Shown here in pieces: positions 6,495 through 11,950 of a DNA stretch of 13,218 nt. The position numbers and the translations under genes are program-made. This DNA comes from a virus (taxonomy: Duplodnaviria > Heunggongvirae > Uroviricota > Caudoviricetes). The DNA is taken from IMG/VR virus record IMGVR_UViG_2693429582_000029; one strand, 5' to 3'. The notes under the pieces are model-generated. The model had not been told where the DNA came from. It did not search any database and saw only the letters and a list, made by a program, of their open reading frames with translations. Numbering within the stretch: the first letter of the stretch is position 1; each line of letters starts with the position of its first letter.

Positions 6495-6543
6495 TGGAGA
6501 AACCAACCGACCTTGCAGGGTCGATATGATGAGGAGCAGCAAA

Positions 6544-6906
6544 ATGGCTAGCGAACGCAGTACCAACGTGCAGGAATTTATCGTAGAACTGGACGGCGGC
6601 GTATTTGAAACTAAACTCGGCGCAGTTCTCAGTGAAGTCGCTTCCGGTGTGATGAACACGAAAAACAAAGGTAAAGTCTCGGTCAATCTGGACATCGAAC
6701 CGTTTGATGAGAACCGTGTGAAAATCAAACACAAACTCTCATATGTTCGCCCGACTAACCGCGGGAAAATTTCTGAAGAAGACACCACCGAAACGCCGAT
6801 GTATGTCAATCGCGGTGGTCGCCTGACTATTCTGCAGGAAGACCAGGGACAGTTACTGACTCTTGCCGGTGAACCTGACGGAAAACTCCGTGCAGCAGGT
6901 CGTTAA
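6544..6906 (+). CDS. yfdP: YfdP-like prophage protein (120 aa), first gene of the early-left operon
   Basis: ATG at 6544 with RBS GAGGAG 7 nt upstream. The longer six-frame ORF (from a TTG at 6313) would run through the leader hairpins and is rejected. Symbol assigned by length and position relative to the yfdQ/yfdR-like genes, as in CPS-53, from memory. Confidence 0.65.
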   Translation: MASERSTNVQEFIVELDGGVFETKLGAVLSEVASGVMNTKNKGKVSVNLDIEPFDENRVKIKHKLSYVRPTNRGKISEEDTTETPMYVNRGGRLTILQEDQGQLLTLAGEPDGKLRAAGR

Positions 6907-6971
6907 TATCGTTTTTAATAAACTGATTATTTATCTCATCACTGAATATCTTTATATAGTGAGGACTTATT

Positions 6972-7796
6972 ATGTCTCAGAACTTAGACGCAACCGCAAT
7001 TAATCAAATCCATGCTCTTATTTCTGCTCAGGGTGTTAATGAAATTATCAGTAAGATTGGTGCCGATGCCGTGGCATTGCCTGAGAATTTCCGCATTCAT
7101 GATCTGGAAAAATTTAATTTAAATCGCTTCCGTTTCCGTGGTGCGCTTTCCACTGCCAGTATTGATGATTTTACCCGTTATTCTAAAGATCTTGCAGATG
7201 AAGGCACCCGCTGCTTTATCGATGCCGATAATATGCGAGCCGTCAGTGTGCTTAACCTGGGTACTATTGATGAACCAGGTCACGCAGATAACACCGCCAC
7301 TCTCAAACTGAAAAAGACAGCACCGTTCTCTGCCCTGTTGTCTGTTAACGGCGAGCGTAACTCCCAGAAGTCACTGGCAGAATGGATTGAAGACTGGGCC
7401 GACTACCTTGTGGGCTTTGATGCTAATGGTGACACCATTCAGGCAACAAAAGCGGCTGCGGCAGTCCGTAAAATAACGATTGAAGCAAACCAGACCGCTG
7501 ATTTTGAAGATAATGACTTCAGCGGCAAACGCTCCCTGATGGAATCTGTCGAAGCGAAGACCAAAGACATTATGCCAGTGGCATTTGAATTTAAATGCGT
7601 TCCGTTTGAAGGCCTGAAAGAACGTCCGTTTAAATTACGCCTCAGCATTATCACTGGCGATCGTCCTGTACTGGTTCTGCGCATTATTCAGCTGGAAGCA
7701 GTGCAGGAAGAAATGGCTAACGAATTTCGTGATCTGCTTGTTGAGAAATTCAAAGACAGCAAAGTAGAAACCTTTATTGGTACTTTTACCGCCTGA
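6972..7796 (+). CDS. yfdQ: YfdQ-like prophage protein (DUF2303-type), 274 aa
   Basis: Clean ATG at 6972 with GAGGA 7 nt upstream; uninterrupted 274-codon frame with non-biased composition. The length matches E. coli K-12 YfdQ as I recall it. Confidence 0.75.
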
Positions 7797-7808
7797 TTTC
7801 CTTACTGC

Positions 7809-7830
7809 AAATGCCCCTGCGGGGGCATTT
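7809..7830 (+). terminator. Candidate stem-loop terminator/attenuator between the yfdQ-like and yfdR-like genes
   Basis: AAATGCCCC / GGGGCATTT perfect 9 bp stem with loop TGCG, 13 nt after the yfdQ-like stop. The U-tract is short, so confidence is low. Confidence 0.35.
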
Positions 7831-7923
7831 ATGGAAACATAATTGACTCAATAATCGCCTGATGGCGAGGGTTTTCTTTAACCAAAATTCTGCGCGGTGC
7901 AGCGCATATACGTGGAGAACAAA

Positions 7924-8460
7924 ATGTCATTTATTAAAACTTTTTCCGGGAAGCATTTTTATTATGACAAGATAAATAAAGACGACATCGTGATTAACGA
8001 TATCGCGGTTTCCCTTTCAAATATCTGTCGCTTTGCAGGACATCTTTCACACTTCTACAGTGTCGCCCAGCATGCAGTGCTTTGCAGCCAACTGGTGCCG
8101 CAGGAATTTGCTTTTGAAGCGTTAATGCATGATGCAACAGAAACGTATTGCCAGGACATCCCCGCACCACTGAAACGACTTCTTCCTGACTATAAACGGA
8201 TGGAAGAAAAAATAGACGCCGTAATCCGTGAGAAATACGGGTTACCTCCTGTTATGAGCACGCCAGTGAAATATGCCGATCTCATTATGCTGGCAACCGA
8301 ACGCCGCGATCTCGGACTTGATGATGGCTCTTTCTGGCCTGTATTGGAAGGTATCCCGGCAACAGAGATGTTCAAAGTTATTCCACTGTCTCCAGGTCAT
8401 GCCTACGGGATGTTTATGGAACGTTTTAACGAGTTATCGGAGTTACGCAAATGCGCATGA
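7924..8460 (+). CDS. yfdR: HD-domain phosphohydrolase (YfdR-like 5'-nucleotidase family)
   Basis: 178 aa from the ATG at 7924 (RBS GGAGA); the track ORF starts at a GTG at 7897. Contains H...HD metal-binding motifs (SVAQHAV; LMHDATE) typical of HD-domain hydrolases. Length equals K-12 YfdR. Confidence 0.8.
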   Translation: MSFIKTFSGKHFYYDKINKDDIVINDIAVSLSNICRFAGHLSHFYSVAQHAVLCSQLVPQEFAFEALMHDATETYCQDIPAPLKRLLPDYKRMEEKIDAVIREKYGLPPVMSTPVKYADLIMLATERRDLGLDDGSFWPVLEGIPATEMFKVIPLSPGHAYGMFMERFNELSELRKCA

Positions 8461-8813
8461 ATGTTTTCGAAATGGAAGGGTTTCTTCGCGGGAAATGTGT
8501 ACCGCGAGATCTGAAAGTGAACGAAACAAATGCTGAGTACCTAGTACGTAAATTCGACGCGCTTGAAGCTAAATGTGCGGCACTGGAAAACAAAATAATA
8601 CCAGTGTCAGCTGAATTGCCACCTGCAAATGAAAGTGTTCTGTTATTTGATGCTAACGGAGAAGGCTGGCTGATTGGCTGGCGTTCTCTCTGGTACACCT
8701 GGGGACAAAAGGAAACCGGAGAATGGCAGTGGACATTTCAGGTCGGGGATCTTGAAAACGTCAATATCACTCACTGGGCAGTAATACCAAAGGCACCGGA
8801 GGCAGGGGCATAA
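8451..8813 (+). CDS. yfdS: YfdS-like prophage protein (120 aa)
   Basis: ATG at 8451 overlaps the end of the yfdR-like gene; an alternative ATG at 8457 forms an ATGA overlap. The stop overlaps the next start as TAATG. Confidence 0.65.
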   Translation: MRMNVFEMEGFLRGKCVPRDLKVNETNAEYLVRKFDALEAKCAALENKIIPVSAELPPANESVLLFDANGEGWLIGWRSLWYTWGQKETGEWQWTFQVGDLENVNITHWAVIPKAPEAGA

Positions 8814-9433
8814 TGACCACATTTACCGACAAAGAACTGATTAAAGAAATCAAAGAGCGCATAGGCAGTCTGGATGTGCGAGACAATATTGAGCGCCGTG
8901 CTTATGAAATTGCTTTGGTATCGCTGGAAGCAGAACCGGTGGCATGGCTGCATTCAGACAATGGCTTAGGTATTCCGGCAATAACACGGAGTAAAAACAT
9001 TGCTGACAGTTGGTTATCAAAGGGCTGGTATGTTCAGCCGCTATATATAGCCAAGCCAGTGCCGATGGTGCCAGATGTTCGTCCGTCTTTAAATAATGGC
9101 ATAGTCGGTTTTGATGAAGGCTGGAACGCCTGCCGCGCCGCCATGCTTCATGGTGCCGAACCTGTAAGCCAGACTTACAAGTTGAACGAGCTGTCGGGCA
9201 ACTCTCTGGTAACTCCGGATGGTTGGATAAGCTGTAGTGAGCGAATGCCGGACGATAAACAGTATGTTTGGTGTTGGGGTAAGTCTTACGGCTGGACTGA
9301 GTGCGATACCTTCGAAGGGTATTACGATTGGTCGAGAAACAAATGGTGGGCAGTTACTGACGATGGGGAAGAACCGGCATCGAAAGTAACCCACTGGATG
9401 CCGCTACCGGAGCCACCGCAGGAGGTGAAGTAA
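8813..9433 (+). CDS. DUF551-domain phage protein (YfdT-like)
   Basis: 206 aa; C-terminal WISCSERMPDD...THWMPLPEPP matches the DUF551 signature common in enterobacterial phages. TAATG overlaps at both ends. Confidence 0.7.
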   Translation: MTTFTDKELIKEIKERIGSLDVRDNIERRAYEIALVSLEAEPVAWLHSDNGLGIPAITRSKNIADSWLSKGWYVQPLYIAKPVPMVPDVRPSLNNGIVGFDEGWNACRAAMLHGAEPVSQTYKLNELSGNSLVTPDGWISCSERMPDDKQYVWCWGKSYGWTECDTFEGYYDWSRNKWWAVTDDGEEPASKVTHWMPLPEPPQEVK

Positions 9434-9627
9434 TGAACAACTTAATGACAACTAAACAAGTCGCCGACTTCTGTGGCGTTTCAGTATCGACCGTTCTTCG
9501 CTGGAACAGCGTAAACAGGAGAACTGGCCAGAAATACAGGCCAGACTTTCCAGATCCTGATATTAAATCATGCCCAAATAAATGGGCATCACGCAAGATT
9601 TACAAATTTGCGGGAGTTATTGAGTAA
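9433..9627 (+). CDS. Excisionase-like small HTH DNA-binding protein (Xis/AlpA/TorI class)
   Basis: 64 aa; TTKQVADFCGVSVSTVLRWN is the helix-turn-helix of excisionase-type proteins. GGAGG RBS 7 nt upstream. Last gene of the operon, facing the integrase. Confidence 0.6.
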   Translation: MNNLMTTKQVADFCGVSVSTVLRWNSVNRRTGQKYRPDFPDPDIKSCPNKWASRKIYKFAGVIE

Positions 9628-9734: not shown

Positions 9735-11867
9735 TCAATCTTTAAGACTAATTGTGATTGCATCTGGAAATCCAATTTGGCTATAGCACATAGTTTCGGT
9801 TATGAATAATTTTCTATCGATAAAATCAAGTACATCTTTTTTCGTGAGCCCCGTTAACATCGTCAATTTGTTAATTACATAATCATACCAATCATGGTGA
9901 AGCATGTTTATATACATGTTAATATCAACTGCATCTTTCCTCCATGAATTATTCGGTATCAAATCTTCAGATAAAAATCCTCTTATTAAATCGCTTGCAT
10001 AGGACATCCTAAGAAAAACAGAAAGAAAAATCCTTACATTAACATGTGTAAAATTTGTAGATAGCGTCGAAGGAAACTCGTAAAACCGGTAGATCAACCG
10101 ACTTACAAACACAGCAGAGTCTATCGCATTTACTGGCAGTAATGTTCCGATGACACTTAATGCACCACTTATAACGAAGCCATTAGCAACAGAGGCATGA
10201 GAACCGCTTAGGGCAGATGTTAAACATGCACTCAGAATTACGATAGGAGGAATTCTTGCTATTTTTCTCAAACTCCAAGTGTCCACTTTATCCTCACCTA
10301 TTATTAACCATCCATGACTCCCATTGCCATCATGGTTTCCATGACAATCCATAACAAGAATATGACCTTGATATTGATTTAGAGCATCAATAAACTCAGC
10401 TTTCGATCTAACATCAATAATCTCGCAATCAAGATCTGGCATCTGTTTTTTAAATATCTCAATTGCGTTCTCTAATATGAACTTTAAGTGATCATCAGGC
10501 TCAAAAGAACGTATAACTAAAACCTTTCTCAACTCAGATGCTTTTACTAAAACGCGCGGAAAAGCAGAGGCGCTCTGTAGAAGAACGTTACCAGGCGTAG
10601 CATTTATTCTTGATATCTCATGACTGAACATTATAGGTATGTTATTAAACCTAATCCAATCCAATGGTACATCACAAACAAAGGACAAATCGCTATAGTT
10701 TTTACTTATATATGTTCTCAACTTGCAACCAAGGGCTCTTCGAATAACAGTATTGAATGCTTTAGATTTAGTGATGAATGCTTCACTATTTATCCCAGAA
10801 GAAGTTGCAAGATCTTCAAGATTTTTCAAATAATTGGAGTAATGATTTATTGCATTTGGCAATCTTATTGCTGGGATTTTTTTATTTATGCTAAATAAAG
10901 TAATCGCAGCTGTTGTTAATCGCATTTCAGCGCGTCTTAGTGAGGTGAGGTAACGGAAAGCAGGACTTTTAAAAAGTTCTTTTCTATCTGAATTTATATC
11001 AAGTCTAATTCCAGAATAGCCAGGATTCCTCAACACTCCATCAATAAGGAATTTTTTCTCAATTGTGGATAAATTTTCCGTTATTAACTCATAAAAGTCA
11101 TTATTTTTATCATATAAAAAAGAGTGCATACCCGGAGCAAAAAGTAAGACTTCCGTTGGAAGTGGTATATCTAATTCCTTTAAACATTCGGTGTATGCAT
11201 CAACGCTATGAAGTATTATTTCTATAAACTCTCTTTTGCTACTACCATCTTTAATTCTTTTTGGTGGAGATAGCATATAGCCAAGTGATTCAATTAACAA
11301 CTCATTGGGTAGTGTTGAATTGTTAAGCGTCGATCTCCAAGGTGATTTATTAAATAAAGCCCCTCTTCGCTTCAACTTCGTTGATATTTTCTTTTCACTG
11401 TGATTTTTTCTTATTTTATCCTCAATGAATTTCAACCGAGAGAAGAGCACCTTATCAAATGAGTATATACTATTAATCTTATTAAGTGGTTGATCAGCGC
11501 GTTTAGAATTGCAACAAATTATAGGTGGTATAGCAAAATGTTTTTTTAAAGCACAAACATACGAAAAATCTTCTTTAGCACAAAAAATTAAGCAAAATGG
11601 CGTTTGATAAATATTTGGTATTTTTTCAAGATTTTCTTTAGATATTAAAAAAATAGGATTTAGCCCGCTTAGAGTAGGCTGAAAGTTATCATTTTCATTG
11701 ACAAAAATCTCACTAATTTCTTTTGGTGTTTTGGCCAATAAAAAAAGAATGTTGGATATCTCTGGGTTGAGGAGGCCAGTATCGAAACCTTGGATTATGG
11801 TTTGTTCCCCAGTAGTAGGCATGATTACAACTTTAAGTATCGCCCCGTGTTCCTGTAACAGTTCCAT
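9735..11867 (-). CDS. Large (~710 aa) protein with a C-terminal caspase-like CHAT protease domain and an uncharacterised ~430 aa N-terminal region; candidate defence/abortive-infection effector
   Basis: Uninterrupted 2.1 kb frame in very AT-rich DNA. First ATG at 11867 with an AGGA RBS; the six-frame ORF extends to a TTG at 11924. Caspase/CHAT catalytic signature: HILVMDCHGNHDGNGSHG (His codons at 10341-10343 and 10314-10316) followed about 30 residues later by PPIVILSACLTSA (Cys codon 10224-10226). Confidence 0.85.
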   Translation of the reverse strand: MELLQEHGAILKVVIMPTTGEQTIIQGFDTGLLNPEISNILFLLAKTPKEISEIFVNENDNFQPTLSGLNPIFLISKENLEKIPNIYQTPFCLIFCAKEDFSYVCALKKHFAIPPIICCNSKRADQPLNKINSIYSFDKVLFSRLKFIEDKIRKNHSEKKISTKLKRRGALFNKSPWRSTLNNSTLPNELLIESLGYMLSPPKRIKDGSSKREFIEIILHSVDAYTECLKELDIPLPTEVLLFAPGMHSFLYDKNNDFYELITENLSTIEKKFLIDGVLRNPGYSGIRLDINSDRKELFKSPAFRYLTSLRRAEMRLTTAAITLFSINKKIPAIRLPNAINHYSNYLKNLEDLATSSGINSEAFITKSKAFNTVIRRALGCKLRTYISKNYSDLSFVCDVPLDWIRFNNIPIMFSHEISRINATPGNVLLQSASAFPRVLVKASELRKVLVIRSFEPDDHLKFILENAIEIFKKQMPDLDCEIIDVRSKAEFIDALNQYQGHILVMDCHGNHDGNGSHGWLIIGEDKVDTWSLRKIARIPPIVILSACLTSALSGSHASVANGFVISGALSVIGTLLPVNAIDSAVFVSRLIYRFYEFPSTLSTNFTHVNVRIFLSVFLRMSYASDLIRGFLSEDLIPNNSWRKDAVDINMYINMLHHDWYDYVINKLTMLTGLTKKDVLDFIDRKLFITETMCYSQIGFPDAITISLKD

Positions 11868-11950
11868 CAAAAATCCTAATAAACAAATAAAAATGTTATA
11901 ATCAAAAACTGCAAGGATTAGCAAGCAATTCTTACAGTTTTAAGAAGGGG

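Follow-up and report, generated by a model that had tools for sequence, protein, structure and literature searches.

A yfdPQRS module behind a structured leader in a lambdoid prophage of Escherichia coli

Here we analyze a stretch of 13,218 nucleotides (nt) of viral DNA (IMG/VR record IMGVR_UViG_2693429582_000029, Caudoviricetes; hereafter the window), and in particular its interval 6544–9433, which carries counterparts of the yfdP, yfdQ, yfdR and yfdS genes of the CPS-53 prophage remnant of Escherichia coli K-12. The window differs at 1 nt in 13,218 from the genome of E. coli O103 strain ML775 (NZ_CP193495.1) and, judged from this match, is the right-hand end of a lambdoid prophage of ~54 kb inserted between prfC and yjjG. 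We consider it probable that this yfd interval represents the early-left (PL) operon in a prophage of the cdtI/Ayreon/mEp460 type, located between prfC and yjjG in an O103-like strain and governed by the CI repressor, and that its yfd genes would act as those of K-12 do. The intact yfd arrangement behind cI and cro is a known, widespread phage module; the fresh lead, and the least understood part of the region, is the unannotated structured leader ahead of yfdP, above all the segment that we call module A. It is possible, though we would stop short of calling it probable, that the conserved structured RNA modules strung along the leader, all outside Rfam, form a new RNA-based antitermination or processing system, or that module A is a new stable phage RNA, in either case governing yfdPQRS-xis. 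If leader RNAs control read-through, they would be the real switch for these host-replication-interfering genes and a new class of phage regulatory RNA.

The yfd operon and its immunity region

The products of the open reading frames (ORFs) were compared by BLASTP with the proteins of the K-12-type CPS-53 locus. The operon comprises the following features, with lengths in amino acids (aa):

6544–6906, plus strand: yfdP, 120 aa, 92.5% identical to K-12 YfdP over its full length; phrog_204, with homologs carrying PF27127
6972–7796, plus strand: yfdQ, 274 aa, 98.9% identical to K-12 YfdQ over its full length; Pfam DUF2303
7809–7880, plus strand: a pair of terminator-like hairpins between yfdQ and yfdR, AAUGCCCC-UGC-GGGGCAUU and UCGCC-UGAU-GGCGA + GGGUUUUCUUU
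7924–8460, plus strand: yfdR, 178 aa, 97.8% identical to K-12 YfdR over its full length; HD-domain protein annotated as a 5'-deoxynucleotidase
8451–8813, plus strand: yfdS, 120 aa, 99.2% identical to K-12 YfdS over its full length; weak DUF551 match; start overlaps the end of yfdR
8813–9433, plus strand: fifth gene, encoding a DUF551 protein of 206 aa (Pfam, 9.1e-18); TAATG overlap with yfdS
9433–9627, plus strand: excisionase-like helix-turn-helix gene, 64 aa (phrog_1553 excisionase, 9.4e-36); TAATG overlap with the DUF551 gene; last gene of the operon

A first-pass annotation of the window had reported genes of 120, 274, 178 and 120 aa matching the CPS-53/KpLE1 cluster, and both statements hold: the ORFs are present on the plus strand, the four proteins align over their full lengths at 92.5–99.2% identity, the gene order is that of CPS-53, and DNA identity to K-12 is 95.6% over 2.4 kb (window 6525–8937). 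On this sequence evidence the window genes are orthologous to the CPS-53 yfdP-yfdQ-yfdR-yfdS genes. The correspondence does not extend to yfdT. K-12 has a 101-aa YfdT followed by torI, whereas in the window the gene for the 206-aa DUF551 protein precedes an excisionase gene other than torI, and the 88% match of the fifth gene to YfdT is confined to residues 1–42, so that this gene is not YfdT. Its product is a mosaic, with the 42-aa YfdT N-terminus, an unrelated middle and a C-terminal DUF551 domain. As stop and start codons overlap at the yfdR/yfdS, yfdS/DUF551 and DUF551/xis junctions, these genes are probably translationally coupled.

Upstream of the operon the two loci part ways. The K-12 sequence can be aligned with the window up to 2207, within an O-like gene, and again from 6525 onward, 19 nt ahead of the ATG of yfdP; K-12 CPS-53 (positions 5350–5982 of the compared stretch) has thus lost the equivalent of window 2208–6524: the N-terminus of the O-like protein, Rha, C4/isrK, cII, cro, cI and all of the leader save 19 nt. 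This bears out the earlier statement that the K-12 remnant lacks the repressor, operators and leader, apart from those 19 nt, and it is because of this deletion that work in K-12 had to rely on multicopy expression.

The novelty that had been implied for the intact arrangement does not survive comparison with cultured phages. The cI/cro-leader-yfd module is present at 96–97% DNA identity in the plaque-forming phages Ayreon, cdtI, 2H10, mEp460, PhiR40_1, PhiR47_1 and PhiR55_1 and Stx2c-converting phages, and further in the cultured phages phiSTEC1575-Stx2k and 1720a-02, which argues that this immunity region works in viable phages. These phages share with the window the cI/cro pair, the long leader and the order yfdP-yfdQ-yfdR-yfdS(-DUF551-xis), although some have a different allele of cI or additional genes behind yfdS. 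The more distant phages LLS, ST64B and SfV have a different 5' leader module and share only module C and a part resembling helix P6 of module A (both described below). Of 5,426 complete E. coli genomes, 3,964 match the interval, 1,574 of them with a match that spans at least 80% of its length, and a yfdP/Q/R cluster is common in lambdoid early-left operons (PMC12315714, 2025). For the natural regulation of the YfdR/DnaA module, cultured phages with an identical arrangement (Ayreon, cdtI, mEp460, PhiR) are therefore already to hand.

The first-pass annotation had also placed a repressor, operators and a leader directly upstream of yfdP. We find cI, cro, operator-like repeats and a 660-nt leader there, the operators being putative:

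4791–5051, minus strand: cro-like repressor gene, 86 aa (Pfam HTH_3, 5.8e-10; helix-turn-helix protein in RefSeq), divergent from cI
5052–5148, no strand assigned: OR-like region of 97 bp, with operator-like sites at 5066–5080, 5090–5104 (palindrome CGCAAATATTTTGCG) and 5114–5128
5149–5841, plus strand: cI repressor, 230 aa (Pfam Peptidase_S24, 6.5e-19; HTH_3, 1.1e-10)
5862–5885, plus strand: intrinsic terminator after cI, AGCCACC-CGAA-GGTGGCT + TTTTC; folding free energy (dG) -11.8, z-score (z) -4.2
5897–5935, no strand assigned: OL-like putative operators TTGCACATCTCGCAA (5897–5911) and TCGCATGATGCGCAA (5921–5935), with PL in the same region

CI is a LexA-like repressor, and its cleavage and catalytic residues (Ala99-Gly100, Ser144, Lys181) are intact. 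The three OR and two OL operator-like sites resemble TTGC-N7-GCAA and recur with a 24-bp phase in both control regions. The consensus is a loose one that occurs in the whole window no more often than expected by chance (11 vs 9.9), so that the evidence for operators rests on their clustering and on the 24-bp phasing in two control regions. A consensus scan of 5880–5990 returned no plus-strand promoter (no 9/12 sigma-70 match at OL), and inspection by eye found only poor hexamers there.

The leader RNA

The 660-nt leader ahead of yfdP is untranslated and strongly structured. RefSeq annotates no feature at 5842–6543 of the ML775 locus, and phage depositors call differing small ORFs in the leader, on either strand, from phage to phage. 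A protein-coding leader was considered, and the ORF that lies in frame upstream had no match in PHROGs. We rejected this reading and take the leader as RNA because of compensatory base changes. BLASTN resolves it into a mosaic of conserved, unannotated pieces, and a search of 5860–6560 against Rfam 15 with lax filters gave nothing meaningful at E<=10. The pieces are arranged as follows:

5990–6243, plus strand: module A, a structured RNA of ~250 nt with helices H1, P2, P4, P5 and P6; single copy in the window
about 6225–6358, plus strand: module B, homologous (~89%) to the untranslated dicF-dicB spacer of K-12 Qin
6360–6406, plus strand: terminator-like hairpin, GGCGGUACCAG...CUGGUACCGC then UCUUUUUA (U5); dG -21.2 kcal/mol, z -4.8
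6402–6500, plus strand: module C, a stem of ~25 bp around a three-way junction; dG -49.2 kcal/mol, z -6.5

Module A was found in 135 instances and in three phage contexts, and the leader structures, supported by covariation, are common to lambdoid, P1-like and epsilon15-like phages. The first context comprises ~70 lambdoid PL leaders, where module A stands upstream of yfdP/Q/R; the cI gene ahead of it comes in several alleles. P1/P7-like phages have it between tRNA-Ile(CAU), which it follows immediately, and ban. The third context is that of epsilon15-like phages such as phiV10, in which the acceptor stem of tRNA-Arg(UCU) starts with the conserved 3' GUGG of module A; as these bases double as the first of the tRNA, RNase P would release module A in these phages. 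Diverged copies occur in Citrobacter, Kluyvera, Erwinia dacicola, Pseudescherichia and E. whittamii genomes. That module A neighbors tRNA genes in unrelated phages points to a processed RNA that may act in trans, and that it precedes terminators in a phage without N points to antitermination in cis.

The fold of module A is supported by an alignment of 11 sequences, in which a six-helix model comprises 39 pairs, 13 of them showing compensatory double changes, and pairing holds in 94.9% of cells. None of 500 shuffles reached any of these measures, and slid controls paired at 30–43%. The 4-bp P4 stem occurs in seven Watson-Crick versions beneath a conserved YUNACCA loop, and the G·U pairs are compatible solely with the operon's strand. 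Taken alone, the 5' half folds no better than shuffles (z +1.7), and support for this half therefore comes from covariation and not from energy. In one variant, from an IMG/VR contig, an insertion of ~90 nt at the P6 apex carries two T-arm-like GGTTCRATTC motifs, and in others the apex is replaced altogether, so that P6 tolerates large insertions. Though module A abuts tRNAs in other phages, ARAGORN found no tRNA in the window, and we rejected module A as a tRNA gene. A literal literature search for module A core sequences gave no match, and a search on non-coding RNA at P1 ban/trnI returned nothing relevant.

Module B corresponds to positions 2990–3130 of the compared Qin stretch and is also homologous to the PL leader upstream of kil in a Rac-like phage; on these sequence matches we class it as a conserved non-coding element that recurs in early-left operons of lambdoid phages. 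Between it and module C lies the terminator-like hairpin, and a GGCGG..CCGC..TTTTT sequence precedes module C in 88 of 150 instances. The module C junction holds an invariant motif of 27 nt, GACGGGCUCAUWACCCAAUCCAYCCGG, and its stem retains 14–17 of 17 pairs across 22 distinct arm combinations, through compensatory changes. The core of the motif, GCUCAUAAC, loosely resembles boxA. In 107 of 136 instances a YfdP homolog lies 110–137 nt downstream of module C, which is common to SfV, ST64B and LLS, where the cI-yfdP gaps measure 630–1070 nt.

Regulation and function of the operon

Multicopy yfdQ and yfdR with either yfdS or yfdT suppress hda-185 and inhibit initiation of replication, yfdP being dispensable, and YfdR binds DnaA through Phe46, in moderate competition with DiaA and DnaB (Noguchi and Katayama 2016; PMC4776307). 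What the first-pass annotation had stated of YfdR-DnaA binding and of the block to initiation by yfd overexpression agrees with this work. In the reading that we prefer, CI would hold PL shut in a lysogen and the yfd genes would be silent. RecA-stimulated self-cleavage of CI would then fire PL, with transcription passing through the leader and yfdP-yfdQ and on into yfdR-yfdS-DUF551-xis. By transfer from the K-12 proteins, which are 98–99% identical, YfdR would bind domain I of DnaA and compete with DiaA and DnaB, and YfdR together with YfdQ and YfdS (or YfdT) would depress initiation at oriC. YfdR is also annotated as a 5'-nucleotidase of deoxyribonucleoside 5'-monophosphates (dNMPs), a predicted activity, and by the same analogy the likely net effect of induction would be a brake on host chromosome initiation combined with a change in dNMP pools during phage replication and excision.

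The HD-domain motifs noted earlier in YfdR are present: the metal-binding residues H...HD...D of the superfamily correspond to H50, H69-D70, E73, D78 and D119, and the protein matches the solved HD protein Atu1052 (PDB 2gz4) over its whole length (E=2e-13). Profile searches for the domain gave a divided answer. YfdR falls in phrog_318 at 2.6e-109, and PHROGs and RefSeq both name it a deoxyribonucleoside 5'-monophosphate phosphatase (5'-deoxynucleotidase), yet its matches stay under the curated cut-offs of Pfam YfbR-like (24.1<25.9 bits), Pfam HD_3 (16.3<22.5 bits) and NCBIfam PRK03826 (20.5<122 bits). YfdR is thus like the YfbR-type HD 5'-deoxynucleotidases in its H...HD...D residues and in local profile similarity over residues 41–104, but unlike them in these scores, and it belongs to a distinct phage-borne subfamily (phrog_318). 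Assays of K-12 YfdR for dNMP phosphatase activity have reportedly been published.

Several observations, these sub-threshold scores among them, weigh against the scheme just described. We could not locate the -35 and -10 hexamers of PL. An effect on initiation has been seen solely in multicopy or under overexpression; purified YfdR alone gave no inhibition in vitro, no replication phenotype followed when yfdQRST was deleted, and the authors grant that overexpression may have produced an artefact (PMC4776307). The fifth gene of the window is not YfdT, although in K-12 YfdS was enough by itself. Given the terminator-like hairpins in the leader and in the yfdQ-yfdR spacer, release of CI alone may not suffice for expression of yfdR-xis, and with the ML775 prophage decayed around the window, induction may give no productive cycle.

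In an alternative that we entertain tentatively, CI is not the sole gate and the leader also acts by RNA-based, N-independent antitermination or processing. Modules A and B, which lie upstream of the 6360–6406 hairpin, or module C, close ahead of yfdP, would modify RNA polymerase or the transcript and thereby permit read-through of the leader and yfdQ-yfdR hairpins to yfdR-xis. Pfam and PHROG searches gave no N-like match among the operon products or the leader ORF; the leader modules combine compensatory base changes with absence from Rfam, and their G·U pairs suit the operon's strand alone. Module C is tied to yfdP in most of its instances, and the hairpins at 7809–7880 fall where Ayreon's depositors annotate a terminator. 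The same possibility, put-type RNA antitermination, has been raised for the yfd-type phage LLS by the authors who described it (PMC12315714).

Like the lambda PL-nutL-N operon, the window operon is an early-left operon predicted to be under CI control, ends in xis and has terminator-like hairpins inside it; unlike lambda, it has no N homolog and no exo/bet/gam, and yfdP comes first, behind a 660-nt leader in place of the short nutL. As with HK022 put, the RNA is structured and comes soon after PL, in a lambdoid phage without N. HK022 put, however, is an RNA of ~70 nt with two stem-loops that occurs as a similar pair, putL and putR (PMC9378689), whereas the modules here are far larger, at 100–250 nt, and differently built. 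No second copy of any leader part was found elsewhere in the window, including downstream of PR, and the leader is therefore not half of a canonical put pair. The placement of module A beside tRNA genes in P1 and epsilon15-like phages, moreover, is explained no less well by a stable RNA released through processing than by an antiterminator.

It may also be, though we are somewhat doubtful, that the DnaA effect is a side effect of overexpression and that the natural job of YfdP/Q/R/S lies elsewhere, for example in dephosphorylation of dNMPs that reshapes nucleotide pools in favor of phage replication, in counter-defence or in a DNA transaction carried out by a large YfdQ oligomer. The silent yfdQRST deletion, the inactivity of YfdR alone in vitro and the artefact conceded by the authors (PMC4776307) are consistent with this, as is the 5'-deoxynucleotidase annotation of YfdR. 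YfdQ is a DUF2303 protein (Pfam PF10065, 309.5 bits against a gathering score of 26.6), and a solved homolog, deposited as 'YfdQ Protein' (PDB 9o7m, E=1.5e-44), has 36 chains, a count that implies a very large homo-oligomer; a literature search for a paper describing this entry found none. The yfd cluster, furthermore, fills the place of the Rec module in phages without one (PMC12315714). On the other side, phages whose Rec module is complete have it as well, and for this reason the same authors argue against a role in recombination (PMC12315714); YfdR-DnaA binding, too, depends on a specific residue, Phe46 (PMC4776307). Fold searches with AlphaFold2 models of YfdQ (pLDDT 76.5) and YfdP (69.2) gave no informative relatives, 9o7m being absent from the copy of the PDB that was searched, and PADLOC gave no match for any Yfd protein. 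A recombinase role for YfdQ or YfdP, which we also considered, is unsupported in view of these uninformative folds and of the cluster's presence beside full Rec modules. NCBIfam has no family for YfdP, YfdQ or YfdS, and a literature search on yfdP returned nothing relevant.

The CI-governed reading has a last rival in the condition of the host prophage. The ML775 prophage, viewed over 4478000–4520400 of that genome, which also carries NleG-type effector genes and sodC, has an IS3 element in its KilA-N gene, an IS66 insertion, a truncated gp10-like gene and frameshifted portal, tail L and tail-fiber genes, and it is probably a defective, effector-carrying element. That the switch is likewise a dead remnant, with the yfd genes permanently silent or under host-controlled promoters as in K-12, is nevertheless improbable, as no interruption affects cI, cro, the putative operators or the operon, the catalytic and cleavage residues of CI are intact, and the region is 96–97% identical to that of plaque-forming phages. 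The first-pass description of the locus as intact thus fits the immunity region and operon and does not fit the prophage around them.

The rest of the window

From cI onward, the plus strand carries the left operon. On the minus strand, the right (PR) operon encodes Cro, a cII/YmfL-like protein, a DUF4222 protein, the isrK and C4 RNAs, a Rha antirepressor and an O-like replication protein, followed by PerC/YfdN-like, Dam methylase/YfdM-like, LexA-like and RusA genes. C4 and isrK are the sole Rfam families scoring in the whole window, both outside the leader. They stand in tandem at 3702–3890 on the minus strand (isrK, 63.7 bits; C4 antisense RNA, 82.8 bits), upstream of the Rha-family antirepressor gene, and isrK/C4/Rha is an antirepressor control module of the P1/Gifsy-1 type. 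The start of the window (1–260) falls inside the IS3 element that splits the KilA-N gene.

At the far end are a low-GC gene of 729 aa and the integrase gene, both on the minus strand. The 729-aa gene (9735–11924, minus strand; 33–37% GC) is sited between xis and int and carries a CHAT domain (Pfam). It is a full-length PADLOC match to BovA of the Borvo anti-phage defense system (800 bits, 5.3e-241), and phage Ayreon carries the 729-aa BovA gene at the equivalent place, downstream of its yfd module.

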